A stretch of DNA of 64,000 bases from an uncultured bacterium (GTDB lineage: Bacteria > UBA8481). The DNA is taken from positions 1,979 to 65,978 of the forward strand of contig CAZJQD010000008.1 of the NCBI GenBank assembly GCA_964548165.1, written 5' to 3'. Below are positions 23,068 through 60,533 of the stretch, piece by piece (position 1 is the stretch's first letter; each line of letters begins with the position of its first letter). A program made the position numbers and the translations under genes. The notes under the pieces are model-generated. The model did no database searches. It was not told where the DNA came from and was given only the letters and a program-made list of their open reading frames with translations.

Positions 23068-23096
23068 TTGACGAGAGCTTCTGAAAGCTTTAGAAA
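23068..23096 (+). promoter_or_regulatory. candidate sigma70-type promoter for smc (TTGACG-N17-TAGAAA) in the moderately AT-rich spacer
   Basis: -35 TTGACG at 23068-23073, 17-nt spacer, -10-like TAGAAA at 23091-23096, about 60 nt upstream of the smc GTG. Sequence-only prediction. Confidence 0.25.
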
Positions 23097-23157
23097 AGAG
23101 CGTCCCAGAACTGGAACGACACAGCTGAGCACACAGCTTAAACGCAGGAGCGTATCC

Positions 23158-27716: not shown

Positions 27717-27795
27717 ATGGGAGGCAGGAGGCTTGGATTCTTCCGGCATTTTGGATCTTGTGTTCAGGCGACCCGGTGCCGATGGTGCCAAGAGG

Positions 27796-29175: not shown

Positions 29176-29191
29176 GAAGCAGGCGAAATCC

Positions 29192-31270: not shown

Positions 31271-31280
31271 GAGCGGCGCG

Positions 31281-36403: not shown

Positions 36404-37267
36404 GTGAGCGGATCTGAGGGACTCATCGGAGTCATCGGCGGCAGCGGCATCTACCAGATGGAAGGCCTCGTGGACGTGGAGGAGATCCGCGTCGACACGC
36501 CCTACGGATCGCCGTCCGACGCGATCATCCTGGGCACGCTCTCGGGACGCCGTTGCGCCTTTCTCCCGCGGCATGGCCGGGGGCACCGTCTCCTGCCGCG
36601 CGAAGTCCCCTCCCACGCCAATCTCTATGCCCTCAAGAGCCTCGGTTGCGACTGGGTGCTGGCGCTCTCGGCGGTTGGTTCGCTCAAGGAGGACGTCAGG
36701 CCCCGCGACGTCGTCATTCCCGACCAGGTCGTCGACGGGACGCGTCAGCGGCACGGTACCTGGTTCGGCGACGGGATCGTGGCTCACGTCTCGATGGCCG
36801 ATCCCTTCTGCCCCGTGCTCCGCCGCGCGCTCGTCGACAGCTGTCGCGCGCTCGGGGTGAGCGTGCACGACGGAGGAACCTACTACTGCATGGAGGGGCC
36901 GGCCTTCTCCACGAAGGCGGAATCCGCCGTGAACCGTTCCTTCGGCCACAGCGTCGTCGGCATGACCGCGCTCCCGGAAGCTCGGCTGGCCCGCGAGGCC
37001 GAGCTGGCCTACGCGCTCGTCGCGCTCTCCACGGACTACGACGTCTGGCACGAGTCGGGGGAGGTCTCCGTCGAACTCGTCCTGGAGAACCTGCACGCGA
37101 ACGCGCGCAACGTCCAGCGGATCGTCAAGGACGTGGTAGGGAAGATTCCCCGCGAGCGGACGAGCCCCGCGCACGAGGCTCTCCGGGGGGCGATCATGAC
37201 CGATCGCAAGCTCTGGCCGCCGGCCACCATCGAGCGGCTCGGGATCATCGTGGAGAAGTACGCGTGA
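36404..37267 (+). CDS. mtnP: S-methyl-5'-thioadenosine phosphorylase (MTAP/MtnP, PNP family)
   Basis: GTG with SD AGGAGG. IGVIGGSGIYQMEGL…LPRHGRGHRLLP…ALSAVGSL…HVSMADPFC…YYCMEGPAFSTKAES…VVGMTALPEARLAREAELAYAL. Confidence 0.85.
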   Translation: MSGSEGLIGVIGGSGIYQMEGLVDVEEIRVDTPYGSPSDAIILGTLSGRRCAFLPRHGRGHRLLPREVPSHANLYALKSLGCDWVLALSAVGSLKEDVRPRDVVIPDQVVDGTRQRHGTWFGDGIVAHVSMADPFCPVLRRALVDSCRALGVSVHDGGTYYCMEGPAFSTKAESAVNRSFGHSVVGMTALPEARLAREAELAYALVALSTDYDVWHESGEVSVELVLENLHANARNVQRIVKDVVGKIPRERTSPAHEALRGAIMTDRKLWPPATIERLGIIVEKYA

Positions 37268-38982
37268 GCGCGGCGTATGGCAAGGAACACCTGGGATCGC
37301 TCCTCGTGCGCGCCGGCGTCCTCAAGGAGTCGGATCTCAAGGCCGCCCTCGACGAAGCGCAGAGCGACAATCGCCGACTCGGCGACGTGCTGATAGCGCG
37401 GGGACTCACGACCGAGGACCAGATCCAGCACTTCCTCAGCATTCAGCTGGGCTACCCGACCATCGACCTCGATCGGACCTGGATCGACCCCGAGGTCGCG
37501 CACGCCCTGCCGGAAAAGTTCGCGCGCCGCTACGGCGTGCTTCCGCTCTACCGCGCCGACGCCTCGGGAGGCCAGGCCGTGGTCGTGGCCATGACCGATC
37601 CCACCGACATCGTGGTGCAGGACGAGATTCGCAACGCGCTCGGGCAGGAGATCTTCGTGGTGATGTGCCTTCCGCGCAGCGCCATGGATCGCCACCTCGA
37701 CCGCCTCTGGCTCTCCGCCCCCGTCGTCGTGGAGGAGCCCGCCAGCGCCGCGGTCACGGAGTCGGCGCCCCCGCTCCTGCCGCTGGGCGGCGAGGAACTC
37801 AAGCCCTCCGTCGCCAGGCTCCTGGAGACGCTCTTCAAGCAGGCCCTGGATCTGCGGGCGTCCTCCGTGCATCTCGAGCCCAAGCAGAAATTCGTCTCGG
37901 TTCGCTATCGCATCGATGGGCAGTACACCAACGTCACCTCGCTGCCCCGGGACCTCTACCAGGCCGTCTTGACGCGGCTCAAGATCCTCGGGAAGCTGAC
38001 GGTTGGCGAGGCCGTGCAGGTGCTCGAGGAGGGGCGCTTTCATCTCCGTCCCGACCTGGTGGCGCCGCCCATCGATATCCGCGTGAGCATCGTTCCCGCG
38101 CTCTTCGGCGAGAAAGTAGTCCTTCGGATCACGCGGCGCTCGGAGATCATCCGTCCCCTGGCGGACCTGGGGTTCGAGGCCGGGCAGACCAGGGAGCTGG
38201 ACGAGCTCCTGGCGGCCCCTGCCGGCCTGATCCTGGTTGCCGGAAAGAATGATTCCGGCAAGACCACGACCGCGTACTCGTGCCTCTCCGTGATGGGAGG
38301 ACCCTCGACGATGATCGTCACGATCGAGGATCCCCCTGCCTACCCGGTGTCGAGTTTCAACCAGTTGAGAAAAGTGCACCTGCCGGAGACCCCGGAGACC
38401 GCCGCCTGGGACATGACCGTCAAGGCGGTGGAGAGACAGGAGCCGAACCTCGTGTACATGTCGAGCGTGGAGACGCGTGACGAGGTCAAGATGATGCTCA
38501 GGCTCGCCGCAACCGGTCGGCGGGTCCTGGCCACGCTCTTCGCCGATGACGCCGTCTCCGCCCACTGGGTTGCTCTCCAGCTGGGCGCCGACTCGTTTGC
38601 CATCGGATCGGTTCTAGCCGGCGTGATCAACGCCCGCCTCGTCCGCCTGCTCTGCCCTCATTGCCGCCGCCCCGCCCAGGCGCCGCCGCCGGACGCCGTG
38701 CTCGCGCGGTTGGAGCTCACGCGCGACTGGTTGAAGGGGAAGACACTCTACGCCGCCGTCGGATGCGAACTGTGCGGCGGTCACGGGTACCTGGGCCGGA
38801 CCGGCGTCTTCGAGGTTTTGACCGTGAAGGAACATCTCCGGGAGATGGTCGAGTCCAAGGTGCCATCCGACCTCATGCGCCGAGCCGCGATCGAGGCCGG
38901 CATGATGCCGCTCAGGGAGGCCGGATTGGCCAAGGTCCTGCGCGGGGAGACCACCATCGAGGAACTCGCCAGCCGCATCTAA
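37264..38982 (+). CDS. GspE/PilB-family ATPase-like protein with an N-terminal MshEN (T2SSE_N) domain; both c-di-GMP-binding motifs intact, His-box degenerate (likely regulatory pseudo-ATPase or divergent ATPase)
   Basis: GTG start overlaps the mtnP stop (GTGA). MshEN 24-residue motifs HLGSLLVRAGVLKESDLKAALDEAQ and RLGDVLIARGLTTEDQIQHFLSIQ. P-loop VAGKNDSGKTTT. Asp box IEDPPAYP. Walker-B-like YMSSVETRDEV. His box LVLSTLHTNDA replaced by RVLATLFADDA. Tetracysteine CPHC…CELC retained. Confidence 0.8.
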   Translation: MSAAYGKEHLGSLLVRAGVLKESDLKAALDEAQSDNRRLGDVLIARGLTTEDQIQHFLSIQLGYPTIDLDRTWIDPEVAHALPEKFARRYGVLPLYRADASGGQAVVVAMTDPTDIVVQDEIRNALGQEIFVVMCLPRSAMDRHLDRLWLSAPVVVEEPASAAVTESAPPLLPLGGEELKPSVARLLETLFKQALDLRASSVHLEPKQKFVSVRYRIDGQYTNVTSLPRDLYQAVLTRLKILGKLTVGEAVQVLEEGRFHLRPDLVAPPIDIRVSIVPALFGEKVVLRITRRSEIIRPLADLGFEAGQTRELDELLAAPAGLILVAGKNDSGKTTTAYSCLSVMGGPSTMIVTIEDPPAYPVSSFNQLRKVHLPETPETAAWDMTVKAVERQEPNLVYMSSVETRDEVKMMLRLAATGRRVLATLFADDAVSAHWVALQLGADSFAIGSVLAGVINARLVRLLCPHCRRPAQAPPPDAVLARLELTRDWLKGKTLYAAVGCELCGGHGYLGRTGVFEVLTVKEHLREMVESKVPSDLMRRAAIEAGMMPLREAGLAKVLRGETTIEELASRI

Positions 38983-39025: not shown

Positions 39026-41116
39026 ATGGGTTCGTGGGCTCGCATAGGCGCCTTGTCATTCCTCGCGTTCACCGCCGTGGGTGCCTTCGGCTACTACGGG
39101 CGGCAGGGGGGGCTCGATGCCGCCGCCGGGTTCTCGCTCATGGGCGCCGCGGTGGGGGCCGAGGCGCGGATCAAGGAAGTTCTCCAGGAAAATCCCTCGG
39201 ACATCGAGGCCTGGATGCAGCTTGGGGATTTCTACCAGGAACATCGCCGGCTTCCGGAGGCGCTGGGGGCCTATGAGCAGGCGGCCCTGATCTCGGCCGG
39301 CGAACCGGGTGCGGTCCTGCGCCTGGCACAGGTCCAGATTCGCCTTGGCGCGCTGCTCGACGCCGAGACGCGCGTGGCGGGGCTCCTGGCCGCGCGGCCC
39401 GTCGACTCGGCGGCCATCAAGGTGCTCGGATGGATCGCCGTTCACCGGGCCATGGATGGCGCCGTGGGGATCGATGGCCTGTCGCCCGATCCCGAGCGCC
39501 TGGCGGAGGCGGATCGCCGATTCGCACGCGCGCTACGCATTTCGCCCGACGACGCCGAGGCTTTCCTTGGCCGCGCGGTCGTGGCCAGGCTCGAGGGCCG
39601 CGATGTCTCCGCGCTCGCCCTGGCCGAGGAAGCCATCGATCGAGACAGCGCCTTGTATTGGCCCTGGCAGATCCGCGGCGAGATCCTGGTCGACCTGGGG
39701 CGCGATTCTGACGCCCAGGCCGCCCTGGCGGGCGCCCGGGCCCGGGATCGGGGCCGCCCCTACTCGCTCATGGAGATGGCCGCGCTCTCTCGTCGTCTCA
39801 AGCGCCCCGAAGAAGCCGCCGCGTTCATGGCGGGAGTCGGACCTGATGGCGCGTTCAATCGCGGCGCCGACCTCCTGGCCGCCAACAGGCCCGCCGAGGC
39901 CGAGGCGGCCTTCCTGGACGCGCTCCTCGCGGATCCCGAGGATGACCTGGCGATGGATCGGCTCGAGAGAGTCCGGCTCCTCATCTATCCGGCTGACGAT
40001 ACGCGGCGCGTGGAGCTTGCGGACCGGCGTCTTTTGAAGGCCGCCCGGTCCGAAGCGGTCAACAACACGCTCCTGGCCTACCTGCATTACCGCCGCGCCG
40101 TCGCCCTGGCGCCTCAGCTCTCCGAGGCTCGGCTCAAGATGGCCCGGTTCTTCGAGCGCCAGGGATCCTTCACCTCCGCGGTCACGCAGTTGCGTCGCGT
40201 CGAGGAGCTGACGCGGTCCCAGACCGAGCGGCTCGTGGCCTCGGACCTCCTCGAGATGATCACCCGGCGGGCGCTCACCGAGATGGAGTCGACTCATGCC
40301 GTGAGTTTCGGGGCGATCTGGGAACAGCCGACCGGGGTCCTGGGCGAGCTCGTGGGCAACCCCGAGGTCCTGGAGGAGCGAATACGATGGAGCGTGACGC
40401 CCGTGCCTCGGCCCAGGTTGCGCGTCGCCATCCTTCCTTTCGCCGAGGCCCTGAGGCCCTTTCACGCGGGGGTCGGCCGGTTGAGTGGGGAATGGCTGTC
40501 GGGAACGCTGGGCCTCCTGCCGGGCTTCGAGCTCATTCCTGCCGCCGAGGTCGAGGCGGCCATGGCGCGGCATGGATTCACCAATCCCGACGCGATCGAT
40601 CCGGGATTGCTGGGCAAGGAACTCGGCGCCGAGCTGATCGTGCGCGGGCGCATCCTGGAGGCGCGCGAGGACGTGACGCTCCGGGTCGAGGCGGTCCTCG
40701 TTCCCGTCGGCCCCGTGGTCTGGCGGCAGGAGTACGCGGTTCGAGGAGGTGAGGCGCTGACACGAACCATCCTCGAAGCTGCGCGCGCGCTCGCCTGGCA
40801 CGCGCCCCTGGAAGGGACCGTCGTCCGGCGCCGAGACCGGAACCTGGTCACGGTCAACCTGGGCCGGGCCTATGGCGTCCGCATCGGGGATACGATGGTG
40901 ATCGAACGGCGCGGGCTCGAACTGTTCGCCCCGGGATATGACTGGCCCGGCCGCCGCGCCGACGTGATCGGCGAAGGGAGGGTTGTGGGGCTGACGGAAC
41001 GCTATGCCGAAGTGCGCTTGTTGCCGACAACGACCCCGGCTTCGGGCGTAGAAGCCCGACCCTCGACGCCCACGCAACTCGTCCGCGCGGGCGATATCGT
41101 TCGTCGCCGGCGATAA
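39026..41116 (+). CDS. TPR-repeat protein with signal/TM anchor and an uncharacterised C-terminal alpha/beta domain, hypothetical
   Basis: N-terminal hydrophobic segment. About 350 aa of TPR-like Ala/Leu-rich repeats. C-terminal ~250 aa (…RLRVAILPFAEAL…VTVNLGRAYGVRIGDTMVIERRG…) of unknown family. Confidence 0.5.
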   Translation: MGSWARIGALSFLAFTAVGAFGYYGRQGGLDAAAGFSLMGAAVGAEARIKEVLQENPSDIEAWMQLGDFYQEHRRLPEALGAYEQAALISAGEPGAVLRLAQVQIRLGALLDAETRVAGLLAARPVDSAAIKVLGWIAVHRAMDGAVGIDGLSPDPERLAEADRRFARALRISPDDAEAFLGRAVVARLEGRDVSALALAEEAIDRDSALYWPWQIRGEILVDLGRDSDAQAALAGARARDRGRPYSLMEMAALSRRLKRPEEAAAFMAGVGPDGAFNRGADLLAANRPAEAEAAFLDALLADPEDDLAMDRLERVRLLIYPADDTRRVELADRRLLKAARSEAVNNTLLAYLHYRRAVALAPQLSEARLKMARFFERQGSFTSAVTQLRRVEELTRSQTERLVASDLLEMITRRALTEMESTHAVSFGAIWEQPTGVLGELVGNPEVLEERIRWSVTPVPRPRLRVAILPFAEALRPFHAGVGRLSGEWLSGTLGLLPGFELIPAAEVEAAMARHGFTNPDAIDPGLLGKELGAELIVRGRILEAREDVTLRVEAVLVPVGPVVWRQEYAVRGGEALTRTILEAARALAWHAPLEGTVVRRRDRNLVTVNLGRAYGVRIGDTMVIERRGLELFAPGYDWPGRRADVIGEGRVVGLTERYAEVRLLPTTTPASGVEARPSTPTQLVRAGDIVRRRR

Positions 41117-41187
41117 TCAAGGGAGTGCGGAACGGGTGGCAGGAAGTCGCTCCAAGGGCTAGGATATCCCTCGCCAGAGGCCTCTTG

Positions 41188-42456
41188 ATGACACCCCATT
41201 GCCAAGTCCCGTCCTCCCCGGGCCCCTCTTCGGGCGGACGTTTCGCTCCGGGCGCCCGCAAGCCCCGCCTGCTCCACCGGTCTGCCCGTGCCTCGATCGT
41301 GGCGTTCCTGGTGAGCTTGGCCTGTCACGAACCCGCCGCCGCCCGGATTGGATACGGGGTTGCGTCCATCGACGACGCCTCGACGCTCTGGGCTCAAACC
41401 TGGGAGATCAAGCTCGGTCTCGAGGCCGGCGCCAATTACCGGCTCGAGGGAAGCGATGTCACGGCCGTCAGGGTGCCCACCCAGATCCGCTACGGGTGGC
41501 GCGAGCGCCTGGAGTGGGGATTCCTCCTGCCCTTTCTCTACCAGCAGACCGACAATAATAAGTTCGACGGGAGCGGGATTGGCGATATTGCCATCGCCTT
41601 GAAATACCAGATGACGCAGGACGAGGAGAACTACCCGGCCACGGCCACGGAGGTACGCCTGGGCTACGGCGCGGGAACGGCCACGGCCAGCGACGCGCTC
41701 TCGATTGCGATCAACTACGCTGTCTCGAAGTCCTTCGGTGAGCGCGGCGTCGCCCACGGAAACCTGGGCTACACGTTCTTCACCGCCGATCGGCAGGACG
41801 TTCTCAGCTGGGGAGCCGCCTACGATTACCGCTTCCTGGAGACCTTGAGGGGATTCCTCGGGGTCAACTCGGGAAGCCAGATGATGCCCGGGGTGCGAAA
41901 TGACATCATCGCCGAGCTGGGCGTGACCAGGCAGGCCGGTCCCTCGCTCGAGTACCAGCTGGCCGCCGGGATCGGCCTGAACAAGAACAGCCCGGACTGG
42001 CAGGTGCGTTTCGGTTTTACCAAGGAGCTCGGGCGCGGGGCGGGCGAGGCCACGAATTTTCGCAGGGCCGAGTGGAGCCATCCGCCGGCGCCGGGGGCCG
42101 CCGAGATCGTGGCGCGGGGAGAGAATGCGGCACGAACGGGCGATTACACCCTGGCCATATCGTACTATCGCGAGGCGATCACCATCGACTCGTCGCTCCC
42201 CTCGGCCTGGAACAACATGGGAATCGCCTACTTCAAGCTGGGCCGCACGACCGAGGCCATGGAGGCCTATGAAAACGCGGCTAAGCTTGCGCCCGACAAT
42301 GCCGACATATACTTCAACATGGGACTCGCTCATTACAAGTTGGGAGACATCTATGCCGCCCGGCGGGCATTTGCGCGCGCGCTGGAACTGAACCCCGAGC
42401 ACGGGCAGGCGCGGAGCAACCTCTTGTCCCTGGAAGGACGCACGGGAGCGCGATGA
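41188..42456 (+). CDS. predicted outer-membrane beta-barrel protein fused to C-terminal TPR repeats, hypothetical
   Basis: N-terminal half has alternating-hydrophobicity beta-strand pattern with aromatic girdle residues (…YRLEGSDVTAVRVPTQIRYGW…, …QVRFGFTKEL). C-terminal three TPRs (…AWNNMGIAYFKLGRTTEAMEAYENAAKLAPDNADIYFNMGLAHYKLGDIYAARRAFARALELNPEH…). Start uncertain. Confidence 0.45.
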   Translation: MTPHCQVPSSPGPSSGGRFAPGARKPRLLHRSARASIVAFLVSLACHEPAAARIGYGVASIDDASTLWAQTWEIKLGLEAGANYRLEGSDVTAVRVPTQIRYGWRERLEWGFLLPFLYQQTDNNKFDGSGIGDIAIALKYQMTQDEENYPATATEVRLGYGAGTATASDALSIAINYAVSKSFGERGVAHGNLGYTFFTADRQDVLSWGAAYDYRFLETLRGFLGVNSGSQMMPGVRNDIIAELGVTRQAGPSLEYQLAAGIGLNKNSPDWQVRFGFTKELGRGAGEATNFRRAEWSHPPAPGAAEIVARGENAARTGDYTLAISYYREAITIDSSLPSAWNNMGIAYFKLGRTTEAMEAYENAAKLAPDNADIYFNMGLAHYKLGDIYAARRAFARALELNPEHGQARSNLLSLEGRTGAR

Positions 42457-42890
42457 AAAACCTGATCATTATTGCCCTGGTTCTTGCCGCGGGCTGGTTC
42501 GGCTGGCAGAAGTTCACCCAGGGATACTGGGCCTCCGCCACGGCCAGGGACTTCGTCGAGGAACTGCGCCTCGGGATGGACAGCGGTTACCTCTCCAAGG
42601 CGATCAGCAGCTGGCAACCCCCGCTCCCGGAGAAGCAGCTGACGCTTCCGGCCGAGGGGATATCACCGGATTTCACGGTGACCATGGACAGCGAGCCCGT
42701 CCAGATCGCCGGGCGCACGACGATCTACTACCTCGTCACGTTCGGGAAGTCGCCCGTGGCCACGGGCGGTCGAAGCCTGCGCTACGAGTATCGCCTTACG
42801 CTCGTCAACGAGGGGACGAATTTCATCCCCAAGTGGACGACGGTCATGTTTCATCCCACGTCTCGCCGTGCGAATCGCGACGCGGCCTGA
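42453..42890 (+). CDS. small secreted/membrane-anchored hypothetical protein
   Basis: ATGA overlap with the upstream gene. N-terminal signal-anchor MKNLIIIALVLAAGWFGW. Confidence 0.45.
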   Translation: MKNLIIIALVLAAGWFGWQKFTQGYWASATARDFVEELRLGMDSGYLSKAISSWQPPLPEKQLTLPAEGISPDFTVTMDSEPVQIAGRTTIYYLVTFGKSPVATGGRSLRYEYRLTLVNEGTNFIPKWTTVMFHPTSRRANRDAA

Positions 42891-45153
42891 CGCCCTCCGC
42901 GTTCCCGTGAGGACTCCAGGCCATTCCGCCGGCACGGTCCTCGCCCTGTTCCTTCTCGTCGTTTCGGCCGGAGGCCTTGCCGAGGCCGCGTCGCAGAGCG
43001 TGCAGTTGCAGCAAGCGCGGCGGCTCTTCGAGGCCGGTCGCTACGCGCAGGCGATCGGGGAGTTCCGGCGGATCGCCGCGAGCGGTGAGAACACATCCGA
43101 GGCCGTGATCGCCGGGTACTACGTGGGGCTGACCGAGGAGAGGCGCGGCAACCGCGATGGCGCCATCACGGCCTATCGGGCGCTCTTGTCGCGCCATGGA
43201 GAATCCACGGAGATGGCGGGTTTCGCGCGCCAGAGGCTCAGGGAGCTCGAGTCCGGGGCGCCGCCTCGTGCGGCCGAGGTCTCCGACGCCGCCGTTGCCC
43301 CCGCGGTGCCGGCGCCCGACGTGACTACCACCGCGGCGCCGACGGCGGTCGATCGCCTCGCGCAGTCCGTGCTCTCGGACATCATGAGCAGCGATCGCGG
43401 CGCGGCACGCGTGTCGCGTCGCGCTCCGCCGTCTCGCCGCTCGCCTCGCCCGATCGCGGCGTCGCCGGCCCCCGTCTGGCCGAGCGCCGGGGGCGGATCC
43501 TCCTCCGCAGGAGCGGATTTTCCCGTCGCGCCCGAAGCGAGCTTTCCGATCGCGTCGGCCCTGGGCCCTGTTCCGGGCCCCTCGGCGATGGCACCCCGCT
43601 ATCCCTCTCCGTCCGCGGTGCCGGATTACCCCCTGGTGACCAGCATCACGTGGGGCCAGGGGGCAAGCGCCCCCTCCCGCGGCACGCTAGCCACATCCTC
43701 ACCGGACGCCACCATGGAGCCCGCTGCTGTCCAGTCCACCGGGTATCAACCCCTGGGCGAGGATGTCGCACGAGCCACTCACGTGCGCCGATCGATGCCG
43801 ACGACGGCGTTGGCGACGGACGTCTCGTCGCCCGGCGCTGGGCGACCGGTGGCTGCCTCGACGGCGCCAGTCGTGACCTGGGAAGTGTCGGTGGAGCCGG
43901 CCGCATCACCGGTGACACGCCCGGCGGGGCGAGTTCCCCCTCCAGCCTCGGGCACTGCGCTCGGTGGACCTCGAGGTTTTGCATGGCCGCAAGGCGATCC
44001 GGAGGGACTTCCTCCACTCGGGGCCTCCAGGCCCTCGTTCTCGCCGATCGCCATTCCGGCTGATGTGCCGTCGCTCTTGGGGTCCGATCCGCGCTCCGCT
44101 GGCGGATCACCTTCCCCGCTACCGGCGCCGCGTTCAGCGTCCCCGACCCCGGCGCCAGGAGGCGAGGTTGGCCCAGCGCAGGTGCCCCCCCCGTCTCCGG
44201 TCCCGGCGCCGCTCCCCGCCGCGCGTCCTGAAGATCGCGCCGCCGCTCTCGGAACTGCGCCTTGGGCGGGACTTTCCGTTGGAGCGCCGGTTGGTGTCTC
44301 TCTGCCCGCGCTCACGGTCGAGGAATTGGCCCCTGCTCCCCAGGTCAATCCTTCACCGACACCGCAGGCCGCGACGGCGCCGGTTCAGCCCCTGGAGGGG
44401 TGGTTGCTTCCCAGCCCCTCCGCGGTATCCCCGATCTCCCAGGATCCCTATTCCCTTCCCGCCCCTCTGCCGGCCAGCGGCGGTTCCGTCGGCGGTGACT
44501 TCGGCGATCTATCCCTTCCTTCGCCGTCCTTGACCGCGAGTGTCGGCATTCCCTCGGGCGCCCGGCCACCCTCGGTGAGCGCCCTCGATCAACCCCTGGC
44601 GCCGATCGAGCTGGCCCCGACCGGTGTCCCGGGTCAGACGCTCGCCGCGCCCGGTCCCTCGGCGCCCTGGGTCGAGAAGGCGCTCTCGTTGAAGCGGTTG
44701 GGACAATATCCCGAGGCGATCGAGGCCTACCGCCAGGCGCTCCTCGTGGACACCGGGAATCCCGTCGTCTTGAACAACCTTGCCGATCTCCTGGTGGAGC
44801 AGGGCGGGGACCTCGACGAGGCGATCCGGCTCGTCAAGGACGCGCTCGCCGCGGAGATCGCCGATCGGGGACCCTATTTTTCGACCCTGGGATGGGCCTA
44901 CGCGCGTCGTGGCGACCTGGACGAGGCGGAAAAATATCTCGACGAGGCCGTCAGAGTCGCGGCGACGGCCAGCCGGCTTTATCGTCGCGGCAGGGTCTAC
45001 GCCGCCCTGGGGCAGGCTGCGAGGGCCAGGGCCGACTTCGATCGGGCGCTCGTGTATGCTGAGGACGCCGCCACGGCTTCGCTGGTGCGCCAGGCCCTGG
45101 CGGAGATGGATCAACCGATCCCGGGTCAAGGAACACCCGGGATCATCCGATAA
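42868..45153 (+). CDS. secreted TPR protein with a ~450-aa Pro/Ser/Ala-rich low-complexity core, hypothetical
   Basis: Signal peptide (…AGTVLALFLLVVSAGGLAEA). N-terminal TPR-like repeats. Long PxxP/SP-rich disordered region. C-terminal TPRs (…ALSLKRLGQYPEAIEAYRQALLVD…). Alternative GTG start at 42907. Confidence 0.5.
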   Translation: MRIATRPDALRVPVRTPGHSAGTVLALFLLVVSAGGLAEAASQSVQLQQARRLFEAGRYAQAIGEFRRIAASGENTSEAVIAGYYVGLTEERRGNRDGAITAYRALLSRHGESTEMAGFARQRLRELESGAPPRAAEVSDAAVAPAVPAPDVTTTAAPTAVDRLAQSVLSDIMSSDRGAARVSRRAPPSRRSPRPIAASPAPVWPSAGGGSSSAGADFPVAPEASFPIASALGPVPGPSAMAPRYPSPSAVPDYPLVTSITWGQGASAPSRGTLATSSPDATMEPAAVQSTGYQPLGEDVARATHVRRSMPTTALATDVSSPGAGRPVAASTAPVVTWEVSVEPAASPVTRPAGRVPPPASGTALGGPRGFAWPQGDPEGLPPLGASRPSFSPIAIPADVPSLLGSDPRSAGGSPSPLPAPRSASPTPAPGGEVGPAQVPPPSPVPAPLPAARPEDRAAALGTAPWAGLSVGAPVGVSLPALTVEELAPAPQVNPSPTPQAATAPVQPLEGWLLPSPSAVSPISQDPYSLPAPLPASGGSVGGDFGDLSLPSPSLTASVGIPSGARPPSVSALDQPLAPIELAPTGVPGQTLAAPGPSAPWVEKALSLKRLGQYPEAIEAYRQALLVDTGNPVVLNNLADLLVEQGGDLDEAIRLVKDALAAEIADRGPYFSTLGWAYARRGDLDEAEKYLDEAVRVAATASRLYRRGRVYAALGQAARARADFDRALVYAEDAATASLVRQALAEMDQPIPGQGTPGIIR

Positions 45154-45249
45154 CGGCAGGGGAGGGTGCCTCGGCATCGTGAACCGCTTGCGACCGCGAC
45201 GGTCGTGGCGTCTTCAGGATACCGGGCAACGCAGAGAACGAGGCTGATC

Positions 45250-48120
45250 ATGCACGCATACCACATCCGGCTCATGAGGACGATCCTGGTTCTCTTTTTC
45301 ATGGGACTCACCGCGATCCTCCCGGCCCTGGCCCAATCCTCGGCGGGCGCGGGCAACATGGCGGCCCTGGCGCGCACCCATTATCAATTGGGCGTGCAGT
45401 ACGAGCGTGGCGGCCAGCCCGGCAAGGCGATCGACGAGTATCGCAGCGCATTCGAGGCCGACCCCACGCTCCTTGATGCCTATATCCAGTGCGGCAATCT
45501 CCTGGTGCGTAGCCAGCGGTTCACGGAGGCGGCCGAGGTGTACCGTCGCGCCGCGCAGGTGGATCGACGCCGCGCCGACCTCCAGCTCGTGCTGGGGGAC
45601 ATCTACCGCCAGCTCAACGACACGCGGGCCGCGCGCGACGCCTACTCCGCCGTTCTCGCCCTGGAGCCCCAGCACCCGAAGGCGACCCTGGAACTGGCGC
45701 GCCTGCAGATGAAGAGCGGCGCCTGGGCCGAGGCCGTTCGCGTCCTGGACGCGAACCGCGCCTTGTCCAACGATCCCGGAGCCCTGGCGGTTCGTGCCTA
45801 CTCCGAGCATCGCCTGGGGCGACTGGATATCGCCGCCCAGCTCTACGAGCGGCTTCTCGAAGCCAACCCGGAGAATGGCGATGCGCGCCTCAACCTGGGC
45901 ATCGTGGAGGCGGCCCGGGGCCGTACGGCCGAGGCCGTGGCGCAGTTCCAGCGCGCGACGCTCCTCGTCTCGGATAAGGCCCAGGCCTATCGCTACCTGG
46001 GCATGGCCCAGCTCGAAGCGGGCCGCGATCACGACGCGCTTGAGAGTCTCCGGCGCGCGGTCAGCGAGAACGGCTCCGATGTGGCCGCCCGCTACCGCCT
46101 GGCCCAGGTGCTCGTCAAGCTCTCCCGCCCGGTCGAGGCCGTTCAGCAGTTGGAGACCCTGCGTTCCTCCTCGGGAAACTTTCCCGAGCTGAGCGCGCTG
46201 CTGGGCCGGGCACTCCTGGCGGCGGGCCAAGTGCAGAGGGCGCGCGCCGAATTGGAGCGCGCTCATGCGGACAATCCCGGGGACACCGAGGTCACGCTGG
46301 CCCTGGCTGAGACCCTGCAGAAGGTTGGAGAGACGCGGCGGTCGCTGGAATTGTACGAGGCCGTGATCGCGCGCCGCAACGCACCGGCATTCGCCTACCG
46401 ATCCGTGGCCGACCTGCATGCCTCGCTCGGTGACGCCGTGCGCGCTCTCGAGTATGAGCGTGCGTACCAGGACCGGCGCCAGCGCGAGGACATCACGGAG
46501 GCGGTCAGCACCGAGCGTCGCTCCTGGCAGATGCGTCTCGACGAGACGCGGAGCAACCTGGAGCGCCAGCTGGCGGAGACGCGTCGCAGTGCCGACGAGC
46601 GCGTGCGCGCCGCCGAGGCGCGGGCCCAGGAGGCCTCGGTCGCGGCCCGCACCCAGGCGCGGGCCTGGGACACGGCGGCGGAGTGGGCTCGGCTCCAGCG
46701 CCAGGTCGATGAGCGCGTGGCGGAGATTCGCCGCGAGATCGAGACCCAGTACGGGGCGCGACCGAACGGCACGCCGGCGGGCACGAGCGCGCCCGTTCCG
46801 GTCGGCACGGGAGTGCCTCAGTCCCTGGCCGATGCGCGCCGGGCCGTGGACCTGGCCGAGCAGAGGGCGATGGCGGCGGAGAACGAGCTGCGCCGCCTTC
46901 GCGAGGGGCGACTGGACACCAGCGCCCAGGCGGAGATCTGGGCGGCGCGCGCCGCTTCCGAGCAGGCGCGGCAGAAGATCCTCGAGCTCTCGGCCGCGAT
47001 CGAGCGTGAGCGCGCGACGAGGGAAGAAGCGCAGGCGGGGGCCGAGCGCGTCCGCGCCGAGGCGACACGCGAAGTGCTCTCGATGCGCGCCCTCGTGGAG
47101 GGCGTGGATGCCGAGGTATGGCGTGGCCTGGGTGAGATTCGCGCGGACACCACGAATCTCCAGAACGAGGATCCGCTGGCGCGCCTGAAGTTCTATGTCC
47201 AGAACGTCCGGCTCTCGGCCGACGCCCGGGTCTCGCGGGCCCAGCTTGCGGCCGAGCAGAGGCTCAACGAGGCCAGGACGCGCGCGGAGTCGCAGGTGGA
47301 GCGCATTCTCCGCGACGCCCAGGGCCAGGTTGATCGAGCCCGCGTCCAGGCCGCCGAGGAGGTTCGGCGCAGTCAGCAGGCCGCGGATTCGCAGGTTGCG
47401 CAGAGGGTGTCGCAGGAGCGGGAGCGCCTCGCCTCGGAGGCCCTGGCCCGGCGGATGGCCCAGGCCGAGCAGTTGCGGGCAAGCATCGAGGCGGATGCCC
47501 AGGTGCGGTTCCTCGAGGAGAAGGCCCAGATCGAGGCCACGTACGAGGCCGATCGCATCCGCATGCAACGGGAATACGACCAACAGCTCGAGCGCTTCCA
47601 GTCCGAGTACCAGCGTCGCCTCGAGGCGGCTCAGGCCGAGTCGCGGCGCGCGAGCGAGCAGGTCGAGGCGCTGACCCGGAACGACACGGGCCTGTTGATG
47701 CGCTCCGAGGTCTACCAGAGGCTCGTTCGCGAGAATGCGATGGTCCGCGAGGATCTCGCCGGCGCTCGGCGAAGGCTCGAAGAGATGGGCCGCGACAAGG
47801 AAGACCTGGTTCGCGAAGCGGACGGGCTCCGGCGCGAGTTCGCCAACGTCCAGGCGCGGTTGGCGGCCCTGGAGCAGGAGTCGCGGCGCTTCTCGGGGAT
47901 CGAGGTCCTGGCCGAGCCCCTGCGCGCCGGCGTCGACCTCAATGCCGCCACGCTCGCGGAGCTCCAGGCGCTTCCCGGGGTCGGCATCCAGGAGGCGCGC
48001 AACATCGTCTGGTATCGTGAGAATGTCGGGCCGTTCCGCTCGACCGAGGAGCTCGTCAAGGTGCCGGGCTTCGAGGCCGCCAAGGCCCAGGCCATCCGCG
48101 CCCTCGTACGCGTCCGCTGA
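45250..48120 (+). CDS. secreted TPR + long coiled-coil protein ending in a ComEA-type helix-hairpin-helix DNA-binding domain (paralog 1)
   Basis: Signal peptide MHAYHIRLMRTILVLFFMGLTAILPALAQS. TPR block. About 500 aa Arg/Glu/Ala-rich coiled coil. C-terminal …VDLNAATLAELQALPGVGIQEARNIVWYRENVGPFRSTEELVKVPGFEAAKAQAIRALV, collinear with the ComEA HhH consensus (LNTA…EL..LPGIG…A.AI..YRE.NG.F.S.EDL.KV.GIG.K). Confidence 0.6.
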   Translation: MHAYHIRLMRTILVLFFMGLTAILPALAQSSAGAGNMAALARTHYQLGVQYERGGQPGKAIDEYRSAFEADPTLLDAYIQCGNLLVRSQRFTEAAEVYRRAAQVDRRRADLQLVLGDIYRQLNDTRAARDAYSAVLALEPQHPKATLELARLQMKSGAWAEAVRVLDANRALSNDPGALAVRAYSEHRLGRLDIAAQLYERLLEANPENGDARLNLGIVEAARGRTAEAVAQFQRATLLVSDKAQAYRYLGMAQLEAGRDHDALESLRRAVSENGSDVAARYRLAQVLVKLSRPVEAVQQLETLRSSSGNFPELSALLGRALLAAGQVQRARAELERAHADNPGDTEVTLALAETLQKVGETRRSLELYEAVIARRNAPAFAYRSVADLHASLGDAVRALEYERAYQDRRQREDITEAVSTERRSWQMRLDETRSNLERQLAETRRSADERVRAAEARAQEASVAARTQARAWDTAAEWARLQRQVDERVAEIRREIETQYGARPNGTPAGTSAPVPVGTGVPQSLADARRAVDLAEQRAMAAENELRRLREGRLDTSAQAEIWAARAASEQARQKILELSAAIERERATREEAQAGAERVRAEATREVLSMRALVEGVDAEVWRGLGEIRADTTNLQNEDPLARLKFYVQNVRLSADARVSRAQLAAEQRLNEARTRAESQVERILRDAQGQVDRARVQAAEEVRRSQQAADSQVAQRVSQERERLASEALARRMAQAEQLRASIEADAQVRFLEEKAQIEATYEADRIRMQREYDQQLERFQSEYQRRLEAAQAESRRASEQVEALTRNDTGLLMRSEVYQRLVRENAMVREDLAGARRRLEEMGRDKEDLVREADGLRREFANVQARLAALEQESRRFSGIEVLAEPLRAGVDLNAATLAELQALPGVGIQEARNIVWYRENVGPFRSTEELVKVPGFEAAKAQAIRALVRVR

Positions 48121-48121
48121 A

Positions 48122-48150
48122 CCTCAGCCGACGGACTGAGGATTTCGGGA
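48122..48150 (+). terminator. weak hairpin (cctcag-N8-ctgagg) plus atttc, immediately after the stop of the first ComEA-like gene; possible attenuator or terminator
   Basis: 6-bp stem at 48122-48127 / 48136-48141. Short, interrupted U-tract. Low confidence. Confidence 0.2.
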
Positions 48151-48187
48151 GTCTGCCGCCGACTTTTGCTATGATGCCGGGCAGGTC

Positions 48188-49747
48188 ATGAAGAGCTTCG
48201 CCTTGCCATCGGTAGTCCTCGTCCTCGCGCTCACCTCGCTTGCGGTTCCCGCCGTGGCGCAGGCGGCCGTCTCCCCCCGTGACACGACGCTGGCCGAGAT
48301 GGCCGCGGGTCTTCGAGCCAGCGACGAGGCGGTTCGCCGCATCGTCGAGCGCGCGATGGCGGCCGTGGAGCTCGCCGAGGCGCGCGCCAACCGCGAGGTG
48401 GCCCTCGCCCAGATTCGGATTGCCGATCTCGAGCGCGCCGTGGCGGCCCAGGGCGCGGAGATCGAGGCCTGGAAGCAGTCCGAGGCCGAGCTGGGGATCG
48501 CGTTGAATGCATCGCTGGCCGAGGCGGATCGCCATGCGCGGGAGGCCAGCGCCGCGGTTATGGAGCGCGATGATGCCCGGGCGCAACTGGCCGCCGCGCG
48601 CCTGGAATTGGCGGCGCTTGCCGAGTGGCGGGACACGGCGACGCGGGCCACGGCCCAGGCGCGTCGCGCGCTCGCGGAACGCGAGGAGCTGGCCGAGCGC
48701 CTCTCGGCCATGCATGCCCAGTTCGGTCTCAGTGAGCAAGCCGTGACGGAGGCGCGGGCGCGGGCGGAGGCCCTGGTCGCGCTCTACGGGGATACGCTGG
48801 CGGCCCTGGGCCGCGAGAACGAGACGCTGCGGGCCAGCATCGGCCAATTCCAGGATCGCATCCAGGCCTACCAGCACCGATCCGGCGTGATGGAGGAATC
48901 CTTGCGACAAGAGGCAGCCCGCGCCGCGTCCTGGGAGACCGCGATCGTCGAGATGCGGGCTCGGGTGGCGGAACATGACCGCGTCCTGGCGGAGGAACGA
49001 TCGGCCAGGGCTTCGGAGCGGCGCCAACTGGCGGACAGCCTGGCCTGGGAACGCGGGCGGGCAGCCGATCTCGGTCGGGCCCTGGACGCGGAGCGGGCGA
49101 GGCTAGGCGACCTCGAGGCGCGGCACGCCGCGTTGACGGAATCCGAGCGGGCGGCGCGCGCGGCCCTGGCGGCGGGCGCGGGATTGACCGAGACCGTCAA
49201 CGCCGTCATGGCCGAGCGTGATGCGCTGAGGATCGAACTCCAGAGCACGGTGCAGGTCCTGAACGATGCGGCGACCGCGCTGGCATCGGCGCGCGCCGAG
49301 CGGGACGAGGCCCGGCGCGGCATCGCTCCCGTAATGCCCTCGGAGGCGTCGCAGGTCGCATTGCTCGAGGCTCGACTGGCGGCCCGTGACCGCGAGATCG
49401 CGGCGCTTCGCCAGGCCCTGCTGGCCGTCTCCTCGCCACTGTCCCCTGGCGCTGTCGTCACCGTGCCGGTCGAGACCGCGCCGCCCGTGGCCGCCACGCC
49501 GGTCGTGATCCCGCCGGCTCCGGTCGTCCCGCCTGAAGTCCCGGCCTATGATTTTGACCCGATGCGCGGAAGTTATGACGACCTGGCCTCCATTCCCGCC
49601 GTGGGACCGACGCGGGCGCGGGCCATCGTCTGGTATCGCGAGAACGTGGGGCCGATTCGCGGCGAGAACGATCTCAAGTCCGTCCCTGGTTTCAACGATG
49701 ATCGGATCAGGCTGTTGCGCCCCTTCTGGCGCTCGAAGGAGAACTGA
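48188..49747 (+). CDS. secreted coiled-coil protein ending in a ComEA-type HhH domain (paralog 2)
   Basis: Signal peptide MKSFALPSVVLVLALTSLAVPAVAQA. About 400 aa coiled coil, Pro-rich linker. C-terminal …YDDLASIPAVGPTRARAIVWYRENVGPIRGENDLKSVPGFNDDRIRLL shares the signature AIVWYRENVGP(F/I)R…(K/S)VPGF with paralog 1. Confidence 0.6.
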   Translation: MKSFALPSVVLVLALTSLAVPAVAQAAVSPRDTTLAEMAAGLRASDEAVRRIVERAMAAVELAEARANREVALAQIRIADLERAVAAQGAEIEAWKQSEAELGIALNASLAEADRHAREASAAVMERDDARAQLAAARLELAALAEWRDTATRATAQARRALAEREELAERLSAMHAQFGLSEQAVTEARARAEALVALYGDTLAALGRENETLRASIGQFQDRIQAYQHRSGVMEESLRQEAARAASWETAIVEMRARVAEHDRVLAEERSARASERRQLADSLAWERGRAADLGRALDAERARLGDLEARHAALTESERAARAALAAGAGLTETVNAVMAERDALRIELQSTVQVLNDAATALASARAERDEARRGIAPVMPSEASQVALLEARLAARDREIAALRQALLAVSSPLSPGAVVTVPVETAPPVAATPVVIPPAPVVPPEVPAYDFDPMRGSYDDLASIPAVGPTRARAIVWYRENVGPIRGENDLKSVPGFNDDRIRLLRPFWRSKEN

Positions 49748-49750
49748 ACG

Positions 49751-50200
49751 ATGACCAACCTGCGAAGCGTGGTGACCCTGGGTATCCTGGCGGCGGTCCT
49801 GGCGTCTGCGGCCTGCACGGCGCCACAGACCCAGGCCGACCCGGCTTCGTCCGGCGGCGATATCAACTATCTTCAGCCCCTGCAGACCTCGCCCGAACTG
49901 CGCATCCGCGACCTGCCTGTCCCCGCCGGATTCACGTACAAGGCCGATCGCTCGGTCATCCTGGAGTATGGACCGACGCTGGCGGCGACTCTTCTGTACG
50001 AGGGAAGCTCCTCGATCGGCGATGTCATCGCGTTCTATCGGCGCGAGATGGAGAAGTTCGAGTGGACGACGAAGGCCGTCTTCGAGCGTGAGGAGGTCAA
50101 GATGATCTTCACGAAGGAAGGCCGCTACTGCGCGGTGACGTTGCGCGGGTCTTCCGGCCTGGGCCGGCGCACCACCATCACCATCGATTACGTCCCCTGA
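49751..50200 (+). CDS. lipoprotein, hypothetical
   Basis: MTNLRSVVTLGILAAVLASAAC: canonical lipobox L-A-S-A-A-C. 149 aa. Confidence 0.5.
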   Translation: MTNLRSVVTLGILAAVLASAACTAPQTQADPASSGGDINYLQPLQTSPELRIRDLPVPAGFTYKADRSVILEYGPTLAATLLYEGSSSIGDVIAFYRREMEKFEWTTKAVFEREEVKMIFTKEGRYCAVTLRGSSGLGRRTTITIDYVP

Positions 50201-50213
50201 TCCCGTTCCATCC

Positions 50214-51506
50214 GTGACGGGGACCCGCTCGTTGTTTTTCCAGGGAGTTCTCATCGCGGCACTGCACCTGGTCGCGACCGGAACGGTAGCCGCCGAGCCG
50301 ATGCCCAGCGATGCCTGGTTTGCCGCCGTCGGACGCGGCGATATCGCAACAGTGAGAGCGATGGTTTCCGCCGGCGCGACGGTCGATGTTCCCAGCCGCG
50401 TCCTGGGTCGCACGGCACTCATCCTGGCGGCCAGTTTCGGACACGGGGAACTCTGCCAGGTCCTTCTCGATGCGGGAGCATCGGTCGAGGCTCGAGAGTC
50501 GCGGACGGGGCGTACGGCTCTCCATTACGCGGCGCGTTCCGGGTTCCGGGACATCGTGGATCTGCTCCGGCAACGAGGCGCCAATCCGAAGCGCCGCGAT
50601 GAGCTATCCGGTCTCGACGCCGCCGGATTCGCATTAATGGGCGGTCATGATGCGCTGGCCCGCGAGCTGGCCGGGACGGTGCACGTCCCGCCGCCGACGG
50701 CGGGATTCGCTTCGCCACCATCTCCTCCGGTGGTCCATCGGCCGGAAGGGCGCGGTGAGCCGGAGGCCGCGGTCGCGCGCCCGGACTCCGTCGCCGCCAC
50801 GCGGCACGTGTCGGCACCGCGTTCCGATTCCCCCCTGCGCTCGGATGACGACGGCGAGACCCTGCCGCTTGCGTGGTTGTGGGACACGGCCCCGGCGGGA
50901 GGCGCGCAGGGACTCCTTGATGCGGCCGTATTCGAGGGAGTTCGCGCCTATAGCGTCGCCGCCGTCGACTCCGCGTTGGCCGCCGGAGGGCGCGTCGATG
51001 GTCGGGACTGGGACGGCTTCACGCCCCTCTTCCTCGCCGTGCTCCGCAACGACTCGAACATGGTGCGGGCACTCCTGGAGCGGGGCGCCGTGGCGGAGAC
51101 CCGCGATCGCGTCGGCTGGACACCGCTCCTGCATGCCGCGTGGAAAGGGTATGCGAGCATCGTGCGCATCCTCGTCAACCACGGCGCCCTCGTCGAGGCG
51201 CGCGGCGTGGATTCGTCGACAGCCCTGCACCTGGCGGCGGAGCGCAATCACTACCAGGCGATCGAGACGCTCATCGATTTGGGATCGCGCGTGAACCTGA
51301 GGACCCGGGACAACCGCTATGTCGGCTGGACACCGCTCATGATCGCCGCCGCCCGCGGTAACGATGTCTCGGTCGGCTACCTGCTGCGGGCTGGCGCAAA
51401 GCCGAACCTTCGCGGGCAGAACGGGTGGACGGCCCTTAAGGCGGCCTTCATGAATTATCGCACCATGGCGGCCGAGATCCTCAGGATGCACGGCGCGGAG
51501 ATGTAG
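50214..51506 (+). CDS. secreted ankyrin-repeat protein
   Basis: Signal peptide. At least six ankyrin repeats (…GRTALILAASFGHGELCQVLLDAGASV…, …GWTPLLHAAWKGYASIVRILVNHGALV…, …GWTPLMIAAARGNDVSVGYLLRAGAKPN…). Confidence 0.75.
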   Translation: MTGTRSLFFQGVLIAALHLVATGTVAAEPMPSDAWFAAVGRGDIATVRAMVSAGATVDVPSRVLGRTALILAASFGHGELCQVLLDAGASVEARESRTGRTALHYAARSGFRDIVDLLRQRGANPKRRDELSGLDAAGFALMGGHDALARELAGTVHVPPPTAGFASPPSPPVVHRPEGRGEPEAAVARPDSVAATRHVSAPRSDSPLRSDDDGETLPLAWLWDTAPAGGAQGLLDAAVFEGVRAYSVAAVDSALAAGGRVDGRDWDGFTPLFLAVLRNDSNMVRALLERGAVAETRDRVGWTPLLHAAWKGYASIVRILVNHGALVEARGVDSSTALHLAAERNHYQAIETLIDLGSRVNLRTRDNRYVGWTPLMIAAARGNDVSVGYLLRAGAKPNLRGQNGWTALKAAFMNYRTMAAEILRMHGAEM

Positions 51507-59916: not shown

Positions 59917-60533
59917 AGGGCGCGCAACGCCGCGGGCACCATCGCCGCGAAGAGGAGTTCGCCGGGAACGCCGGCCAGGGCCAGTGCCATGGCCGGTTGC
60001 GGCTTGAGGCTCAGGCCCAGGAGAATGCCCGCGTTGATGGCGAGGAGCGCTGTCGGGAGACCGAGGATGGCGCTGCCCAGGAGGAAGAACGCCACGGGGC
60101 GCTGGTGGGTCGTCAGTGCCAGGAGAACGAGGAGCGAGGGAAGGGCGACGAGGATGGCGCCGCCCGCGGGCTGCGTGCGCGCGAATCGGGGACGGAGAAC
60201 GGCGAGAACGGGCGACGCCAGGTAGACGCCGATCCCTGCGCCGGCGAAGGCGGCGGTGGCAAAGGCGACGATCGGGGAGAGGCTCGTCGCGGCAAAGCGC
60301 GCCAGGCCGGCGTTGAGGACCGTGGCGGCCACGGCATAGCTGATCATGAGCGTGTACCAGCGGTAGGGAAGCCCCCGGCCGCCGAGGCTCGTGAAGACCA
60401 TGGCCCAGAAGGCCCCGGCAAAGGTGCCGGCCGCCATGGGCGAGAGGGCGATGGAGCGGCCGGAAAGGGTGGGGATCTCCAGGGCGAGCGGCGAGGAGGT
60501 GAGGAGAAATCCCAGCGGTTCCAGCGCGTTCAT
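59913..60533 (-). CDS. hypothetical polytopic membrane protein (about 6 TM)
   Basis: Start at MNALEP, overlapping the S8 peptidase stop by 1 nt (TGATG). Very hydrophobic Ala/Leu-rich sequence. No family assigned. Confidence 0.4.
   Translation of the reverse strand: MNALEPLGFLLTSSPLALEIPTLSGRSIALSPMAAGTFAGAFWAMVFTSLGGRGLPYRWYTLMISYAVAATVLNAGLARFAATSLSPIVAFATAAFAGAGIGVYLASPVLAVLRPRFARTQPAGGAILVALPSLLVLLALTTHQRPVAFFLLGSAILGLPTALLAINAGILLGLSLKPQPAMALALAGVPGELLFAAMVPAALRAL

Follow-up and report, generated by a model that had tools for sequence, protein, structure and literature searches.

Two adjacent genes on the plus strand of a 64,000-nucleotide stretch of DNA from an uncultured bacterium (contig CAZJQD010000008.1; the whole stretch is hereafter called the window) encode proteins of 956 and 519 amino acids (aa), termed P1 and P2, each of which carries one ComEA-type double helix-hairpin-helix (HhH) domain atop a long α-helical, heptad-periodic stalk. 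In natural transformation, ComEA serves universally as the periplasmic receptor for DNA. The pair had been singled out in an earlier note, made from the letters alone, as two tandem secreted coiled-coil proteins with a terminal ComEA-like domain, and both open reading frames (ORFs) are indeed present in the ORF list at the size and place reported there. Tentatively, we favour the reading that P1 and P2 are stalk-mounted ComEA-type DNA receptors, which would be docked to a scaffold of tetratricopeptide repeats (TPR) within a TPR-rich, lineage-restricted envelope module.

Domain architecture of P1 and P2

From the N- to the C-terminus, P1 comprises a signal peptide, a TPR superhelix, a helical linker, a conserved helical domain and the ComEA-type HhH domain, and P2 a signal peptide, a conserved N-terminal motif, a coiled-coil stalk, a Pro-rich linker and the ComEA-type HhH domain (Table 1). 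The open frame of P1 extends back to a GTG at 45166; we took the ATG at 45250 as its start, since this position agrees with an independent Logan gene call and with the N-termini of the orthologues. A Logan run independently yielded an assembly of the locus with the same sequence. The guanine-cytosine (GC) content of the window is ~68-70%, and long spurious ORFs are numerous on both of its strands; one of 789 aa (45214-47583, minus strand) overlaps P1 in antisense, is of the spurious type that arises at ~70% GC and has no orthologue support.

The Sec signal peptides proposed for both proteins were upheld, as read by eye: both N-termini are basic, then hydrophobic, and end in a Sec-like AxA-Q. 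Signal-like N-termini are kept in the orthologues of P1 and P2, and in the orthologue alignment of P1 (A3) residues P25, A26, A28 and Q29 are invariant. The organism is diderm, as shown by window genes for a lipid A acyltransferase, a secretin and a SurA-like protein. Both P1 and P2 are probably Sec-exported and periplasmic.

The C-terminal HhH domains were recovered by a profile search, in which the Pfam model HHH_3 (PF12836; gathering threshold 27 bits) matched P1 at aa 894-953 (61.8 bits, E 6.7e-17) and P2 at aa 462-513 (34.5 bits, E 2.3e-8). The same model is present in all P1 and P2 orthologues, and the HhH domain is the best-conserved part of either protein. Among solved structures, the best sequence matches, after the eukaryotic nuclease EEPD1 (9YI2), are ComEA DNA-binding domains, which align without gaps, and the closest HhH relatives among 5.8e9 proteins are ordinary ComEA proteins of 75-130 aa, with 40-55% identity. 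All proteins that a word-index search with the HhH alignment brought up were ≤130 aa long, so that this search is blind to long architectures; it missed known members of the family and gave two family fragments, P0126 and P0127. Judged by their sequence, the HhH domains of P1 and P2 are clearly ComEA-derived.

Two claims of the earlier note about these domains stand in part. First, P1 and P2 had been called paralogs, which is correct for their last ~60 residues. Only the 58-aa HhH domain aligns between them (hhalign probability 98%, 41% identity; BLASTP agrees) and nothing outside it does, which rules out paralogy of the whole proteins; since homology is confined to this domain, they are domain-level paralogues. 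Second, the motif IVWYRENVGP had been described as an atypical replacement of the usual ComEA motif. The quoted peptides are there, with WYRENVGP occurring exactly twice in the six-frame translation of the window, and their substitutions are family-specific. However, IVWYRENVGPF aligns gap-free to IIAYREENGRF and IIAYREEHGPF of the ComEA structures 8DFK and 8DSS, and is thus a mildly atypical substitution variant of the ComEA consensus, not another motif in its place. Because the derived residues are common to two otherwise unrelated proteins, they speak either for a single origin of the domain in this lineage or for co-evolution of both proteins towards a common partner.

The stalks were evaluated by the hydrophobic 3.5-residue periodicity expected of heptads, relative to 1000 composition-preserving shuffles and with the TPR region as control. 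The periodicity beats 1000/1000 shuffles in P1 406-889 and in P2 44-413, but not in the TPR control, and the coiled-coil call is therefore not a simple matter of Ala/Arg/Glu composition (16-27% Ala and 14-18% Arg in the regions of P1 and P2). Together with the conservation of the helical block of P1, this removes the concern that the coiled coils might be low-complexity false positives. Long helices are also predicted in both proteins by AlphaFold2 (AF2). The long coiled coil claimed for both is accordingly retained for P2 and for the heptad-periodic helical part of P1, and lost for the ~40% of P1 that is TPR. Membership in the SMC or M-protein families, which had been feared as a source of error, finds only a sub-threshold SMC_prok_B match (17.5 vs 567 bits), attributable to coiled-coil composition, with neither SMC_N nor an anchor motif detected.

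In P1, aa ~40-405 match TPR_2 (96.6 bits, E 1.9e-28) and numerous further TPR models, and are modelled with an AF2 predicted local distance difference test (pLDDT) score >90. A Foldseek search of the model against the PDB returned only generic TPR superhelices, with OGT (E 3e-15) and SPINDLY at the top. Multiple TPR profiles combined with a superhelical fold were found for aa 40-405 of P1 only, and none in P2. The linker that follows has an Ala/Pro/Gly-rich break at ~502-525, where AF2 places a low-confidence gap between helices 396-501 and 526-550. The conserved helical domain (aa 576-889), in turn, is almost free of indels (317 columns for ~315 residues) in an alignment of seven sequences, with 60-88% identity to the window sequence, and the heptad signal of P1 peaks at aa 813-896. 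This domain is an orphan, for which we found no significant PDB or Pfam profile match; ATP synthase subunit b, its best match, was rejected as a relative (E 0.16, compositional).

In P2, the N-terminal motif DEAVRRIVERAMAAVELAEA is kept with R50-A59 (RRIVERAMAA), V60 and L62-A65 invariant in 5/5 P2-family sequences, and is a candidate docking helix. The stalk is predicted as helices 44-196, 201-378 and 387-413, with pLDDT mostly 75-92. The linker (aa 414-455) is 29% Pro with AF2 pLDDT <50, and is present in all orthologues, though variable. The length of the P2 orthologues ranges from 502 to 638 aa.

A rare gene pair in a conserved envelope operon

The P1/P2 family is extremely rare, with about a dozen sequences known, all from uncultured bacteria. 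Among 5.8 billion clustered proteins, searches with the full-length sequences gave two P1 and four P2 orthologues. A phmmer search with P1 560-956 against 1.84 billion representatives gave five clusters with the helical block plus HhH (E ≤ 4e-107), and the remaining matches, among the best 150 of 7,966, have the HhH domain alone. Two loci, one of them labelled Candidatus Hydrogenedentota J006, were found in a scan of 185,579 species-representative genomes, and five short contigs in 241 million metagenome records. A scan of viral contigs yielded no relatives of P1 or P2, and a phage origin was rejected. An origin as a defence system was also rejected, since P1, P2 and most of their neighbours had no PADLOC match, and the matches that were obtained are to generic ankyrin or TPR repeats.

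Conservation of gene order was determined by tblastn of nine window proteins against all fetched loci. P2 directly follows P1 in 14/14 loci (~ten distinct sequences). Since orthologues of both genes exist and are always adjacent, the pair is not a product of mis-assembly, a possibility that the earlier note had kept in view. Wherever the contig is long enough, six genes have a fixed order, namely, an outer-membrane β-barrel protein with TPR, a small anchored protein, a TPR-linker-TPR protein, P1, P2 and a 149-aa lipoprotein. The C-terminal TPR of the TPR-linker-TPR protein precedes P1 in every locus reaching that far (L001-L010), and no Pfam match was found for the 149-aa lipoprotein. In the window, the genes from 39026 to 51506 are tightly spaced or overlapping. 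Rfam and promoter/terminator scans gave nothing above chance.

Table 1. P1, P2 and neighbouring genes, in window coordinates. L numbers denote loci; protein-level features are given with their aa range.
Feature	Coordinates	Strand	Evidence
MshE/PilB-like ATPase with c-di-GMP-binding MshEN domain	36553..38982	+	T2SSE E 1.6e-66; MshEN
TPR protein, 696 aa, upstream of core	39026..41116	+	Pfam; orthologues in L002, L005, L006, not L009
Outer-membrane β-barrel (Phenol_MetA_deg-like) with C-terminal TPR	41125..42456	+	Pfam; syntenic in L002, L005, L006, L009
145-aa protein with N-terminal membrane anchor	42453..42890	+	ORF; syntenic in L002, L005, L006, L009
TPR, ~450-aa Pro/Ala/Ser-rich linker, TPR (761 aa)	42868..45153	+	Pfam
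P1 gene, 956 aa	45250..48120	+	ORF list and domain evidence
P1 signal peptide, aa 1-28 (…LPALA/Q)	45250..45333	+	hydrophobic 19-mer at aa 6-32; by eye
P1 TPR domain, aa ~40-405, ~11 repeats	45367..46464	+	TPR models, AF2, Foldseek
P1 variable helical linker, aa 406-575	46465..46974	+	indel-rich, poorly conserved among orthologues
P1 conserved helical domain, aa 576-889, orphan	46975..47916	+	alignment of 7 sequences
P1 ComEA-type HhH domain, aa 890-956	47917..48117	+	HHH_3; alignment to 8DFK/8DSS and EEPD1 9YI2
P2 gene, 519 aa	48188..49747	+	ORF list; exact protein P0121 in public data
P2 signal peptide, aa 1-24 (…VPAVA/Q)	48188..48259	+	hydrophobic segment aa 1-29; by eye
P2 helical/coiled-coil stalk, aa 44-413	48317..49426	+	AF2, heptad test
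P2 invariant N-terminal motif, aa 46-65	48323..48382	+	alignment of five P2-family sequences
P2 Pro/Val/Ala-rich flexible linker, aa 414-455	49427..49552	+	composition, AF2
P2 ComEA-type HhH domain, aa 456-519	49553..49744	+	HHH_3; gap-free alignment to 8DSS
149-aa putative lipoprotein directly 3' of P2	49751..50200	+	in every locus long enough, including L009, L011-L013
Exported ankyrin-repeat protein, 430 aa	50214..51506	+	Ank_2 E 3e-53; L002, L004-L007

Around this core, other genes come and go. The ankyrin-repeat protein is a frequent, not a universal, downstream partner. The MshE/PilB-like ATPase, whose cyclic di-GMP (c-di-GMP) motif scores 50.3 bits with NF053729 (cut-off 38) and whose true start is probably at ~aa 240 of its ORF, is adjacent in three genomes only, namely, the window, L005 (573 aa) and L006 (558 aa). 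In the Hydrogenedentota locus (L009), argB lies upstream of the core, with neither the ATPase nor an exopolysaccharide (EPS) gene immediately upstream. In the window itself, a polysaccharide export cluster on the plus strand (27415-34981) encodes a Wza-like Poly_export/SLBB protein, two consecutive Wzc-like proteins of 692 and 749 aa of the chain-length-determinant/tyrosine-kinase type, and a Wzy_C/O-antigen-ligase-like membrane protein; it is followed by proC and then by the envelope operon, downstream of which polysaccharide-modifying genes are found. Adjacency to an EPS cluster is documented for the window alone.

Farther upstream in the window (3764-9340, plus strand) is a gene set resembling those of type II secretion or type IV pili, with a 910-aa secretin that has an N-terminal TPR and an N0 domain, a 490-aa GspE/PilB ATPase with MshEN, and a GspF/PilC platform protein; we recognised no pilin genes near this set. 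The window thus holds two MshEN-type ATPases, this one and that at 36553-38982.

Some neighbouring proteins deserve mention in their own right. The centre of the TPR-linker-TPR protein is Pro/Ala/Ser-rich and of low complexity over 450 aa in the window, and Lys/Glu/Pro-rich over ~900 aa in the Hydrogenedentota relative (L009 4481-7960), so that the two TPR ends persist although the linker between them differs entirely in length and composition. By reading, the C-terminal third of the 696-aa TPR protein (…LRVAILPFAEALRPF… LIVRGRILEAR…) resembles a CsgG/LpoB/TolB-N-like α/β module, for which Pfam gave no match; such modules are frequent in periplasmic scaffold proteins. Downstream of the operon, an S8 subtilase with Laminin_G_3 on the opposite strand and a HAD hydrolase recur in L004-L007, with TPM-domain and LemA proteins between operon and subtilase in L005 and L006. 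These genes form a second conserved neighbourhood block, of which the subtilase (60533-62797) and a TPM-domain protein (57999-59210) were confirmed on the minus strand of the window. Finally, a 1,595-aa ORF (18154-22941, plus strand) matches Radical_SAM_N2, Radical_SAM and DUF2344 in its C-terminal half only; its ~780-aa N-terminal extension has no Pfam match and may be over-extended in this high-GC DNA. An SMC gene follows at 23023-26709.

What the HhH domains may bind

If P1 and P2 are DNA receptors, they could work as follows. The stalks would probably drive oligomerisation, P1 would dock via its 11-repeat TPR superhelix and P2 probably via its invariant N-terminal helix, and the ~40-residue Pro-rich tether would give the P2 HhH domain reach. 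Multiple HhH domains, set off from the TPR scaffold by a constant length, would then grip double-stranded DNA by its phosphate backbone irrespective of sequence, and DNA would be captured or retained in the envelope, for uptake or for the anchoring of extracellular DNA. In some genomes an ankyrin protein, a further TPR protein and a c-di-GMP-sensing MshE-like ATPase are added to the module. The conserved partners (β-barrel, TPR proteins, lipoprotein) are envelope proteins, which we count in favour of this reading. A role as DNA tether, spanning the periplasm or embedded in a matrix, as suggested in the earlier note, is plausible.

The residues of the HhH domains give a more nuanced picture. 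The 15 domains of the two families were compared with 609 instances of HHH_3 drawn from the 263 closest proteins recovered outside these families, and the four lysines mutated in Bacillus subtilis ComEA were mapped onto P1 and P2 by alignment. In B. subtilis, transformation falls to ~0.5% of wild type with K164A and to ~0.3% with K199A (PMC9747964). In the P2 family, the K164 equivalent is Arg and the K199 equivalent Arg or Lys; the P1 family, too, has Arg or Lys at the latter. The first hairpin is canonical in both proteins (LPGVG in P1, IPAVG in P2). DNA binding appears likely for P2 but uncertain for P1.

Several observations weigh against the reading of P1 and P2 as DNA receptors. First, both proteins miss the cut-offs of the NCBIfam models TIGR00426 (53.1 bits; P1 46.4, P2 26.3) and TIGR01259 comEA (152.35 bits; P1 47.3, P2 26.7). 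Second, the residue after hairpin 1 is Trp in 15/15 family domains and in 2/609 of the others, and this invariant Trp suggests an added or different interface. Third, the second Gly of hairpin 2, present in 423/609, occurs in 0/15 family domains, which have N, D, E or T instead, so that of the two G-h-G hairpins of ComEA the second is degenerate throughout both families. Fourth, Glu is invariant at the K164 position throughout the P1 family, and P2 has an Asp at the K193 position. Fifth, ComEA-fold domains without a known DNA role exist, such as those of PsbU and of GspK from the type II secretion system, and the Pfam models of PsbU and GspK cross-match related HhH proteins. Sixth, neither comEC nor any other competence gene is found in the conserved operon, and the secretin/GspE/GspF set of the window, which is 35 kb away on the upstream side, is outside the conserved module and not syntenic elsewhere. 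Lastly, the AF2 confidence for the helical half of P1 is low (pLDDT 45-68), owing to the three-sequence alignment on which the P1 model was built.

The main alternative is that the HhH domains have been repurposed for another ligand, be it an anionic or phosphorylated exopolysaccharide, each other or a different protein, with P1 and P2 as scaffolds of a polysaccharide or envelope assembly machine. This alternative, unlikely on balance yet deserving serious attention, would draw on the common loss and gain of residues in both families, acidic ones in hairpin 2 included, and on the Glu of P1; on the missed ComEA cut-offs; and on the cross-matching PsbU and GspK models. The same derived signature in two otherwise unrelated proteins fits co-evolution for a shared partner. 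Moreover, the window operon lies directly 3' of the Wza/Wzc/Wzc/Wzy-like cluster, with polysaccharide-modifying genes beyond it, and a c-di-GMP-binding ATPase is adjacent in three genomes. However, the first hairpin is intact in both proteins, P2 keeps both key basic positions and P1 one of them, and even among related HHH_3 domains only ~36% have a basic residue at the K164 position. In addition, the nearest sequence relatives are bona fide ComEA-type domains, the EPS neighbourhood is seen in the window alone, and the core of L009 adjoins argB, with neither ATPase nor EPS gene immediately before it.

A clearly improbable alternative, which corresponds to the matrix-embedded tether of the earlier note, is that P1 and P2 are surface-exposed or secreted into the matrix, where they would cross-link extracellular DNA with exopolysaccharide or with the cell surface, and cross the outer membrane via the operon β-barrel or the type II-like system located elsewhere in the window. 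The stalks and TPR would suit multivalent cross-linking, the c-di-GMP-sensing ATPase and EPS genes are close by, the window has the TPR-secretin, GspE and GspF set, and secreted S8 protease and ankyrin proteins recur in the vicinity. Nevertheless, we saw neither an outer-membrane translocation signal nor a sorting motif in P1 or P2, Sec-only signals default to the periplasm in diderms, and the secretin cluster is outside the conserved module. Barrels of the Phenol_MetA_deg type are small, and we know of none that exports folded proteins.

That the pair is an artefact of low-complexity Ala/Arg/Glu sequence in a 70% GC genome, of annotation or assembly error and of chance HhH matches has practically no probability left: high GC does yield long spurious ORFs such as the antisense one over P1, and the Ala and Arg contents are high, but the conservation data refute it, with orthologues of 30-78% identity and the same gene order across loci of 43-70% GC and a nearly indel-free 315-aa block, as do the HHH_3 E-values of 7e-17 and 2e-8, the heptad periodicity and the identical Logan assembly.

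Relation to known systems and implications

The body plan proposed for P1 and P2 parallels that of Gram-positive ComEA (B. subtilis and Geobacillus stearothermophilus; 8DFK, 8DSS), which consists of an anchor, an oligomerisation domain, a flexible linker and a DNA-binding domain (PMC9747964), although it is made of unrelated parts. Both are exported, as judged for P1 and P2 from their AxA-Q N-termini by eye; both end in the same Pfam double HhH, alignable without gaps; and the HhH domain of P2 is preceded by a disordered Pro-rich tether comparable to the flexible linker of ComEA (PMC9747964). The basic residue equivalent to K199 is common to both families and to Gram-positive ComEA, and that equivalent to K164 to P2. 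Unlike Gram-positive ComEA, however, P1 and P2 lack a transmembrane anchor and an SLBB-like oligomerisation domain, in the place of which they have 370-850 residues of TPR/coiled-coil stalk. They have also lost the hairpin-2 Gly and gained the Trp after hairpin 1, with Glu at K164 in P1, score below the NCBIfam cut-offs, and belong to an operon without competence genes in a diderm host. Their lengths of 956 and 519 aa are far from those of ComEA, which is either a ~100-aa single domain or a ~200-aa protein with transmembrane, oligomerisation and DNA-binding domains. P1 and P2 follow a ComEA-like logic, and are not members of the Gram-positive ComEA family.

Gram-negative ComEA (Vibrio cholerae; Thermus thermophilus, 2DUY) shares with them a signal peptide and a periplasmic HhH, and has been proposed to retain incoming DNA in the periplasm (PMC3879209). 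It is, nonetheless, a free single domain of ~100 aa, whereas in P1 and P2 the domain tips a scaffold of 500-950 aa encoded by an obligate gene pair.

HHH_3 on large exported proteins is not unusual, as secretin, nuclease, metallo-β-lactamase and kinase fusions are among the matches listed. In such fusions (P0285, P0295, P0289 and P0290) a ComEA-type HhH is likewise appended to a large envelope or extracellular protein, but as tandem arrays of 3-7 HhH with a catalytic or channel domain, where P1 and P2 have a single copy on a helical stalk and neither kind of domain. As a separate observation, P0285, P0295, P0309, P0316, P0333 and P0377 are giant secretins of 1,500-2,800 aa with ~four tandem C-terminal HHH_3, whose position after the secretin domain was confirmed by Pfam in P0285 and P0295; they would be outer-membrane channels with predicted DNA-binding modules, and to our knowledge have not been described.

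The N-terminal TPR superhelix of P1, like three TPR proteins encoded beside it, gives sub-threshold NCBIfam matches to TPR scaffolds of envelope machines (PilF/PilW/Tgl pilotins, PrsT, and BcsC/PgaA/PelB), and BcsC, PgaA and PelB combine TPR with an outer-membrane β-barrel, as one operon neighbour does. These scores are far below the cut-offs (PrsT, 96.6 vs 312 bits), and those families lack coiled coil plus HhH.

The novelty lies in the placing of one HhH on a stalk of TPR and/or coiled coil, in the obligate pairing, in the derived signature and in the conserved operon. In agreement with the earlier note, which was not aware of this architecture having been described, we found no description of it in the literature, and no protein source names these proteins. 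It is tempting to speculate, as a long shot, that the six-gene core is an undescribed trans-envelope DNA-capture apparatus of Hydrogenedentota-like bacteria, with two co-evolved stalk-mounted ComEA-derived domains, which might serve as a type-IV-pilus-independent uptake machine or anchor extracellular DNA, and which in some genomes could be driven or gated by the c-di-GMP-binding MshE-like ATPase.

Every carrier of P1 and P2 is uncultured and represented by a few contigs at most. For ComEA, it has been argued that oligomerisation on DNA supplies the pulling force of uptake (PMC9747964, PMC13168374), and a diderm lineage in which the same logic is differently built would be an independent natural experiment on this idea. 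Should the HhH domains of P1 and P2 bind DNA, the module would be a candidate for an undescribed machine that captures DNA or anchors extracellular DNA; should they not, it would clearly exemplify the conversion of a ComEA domain to the binding of some other ligand in the envelope.

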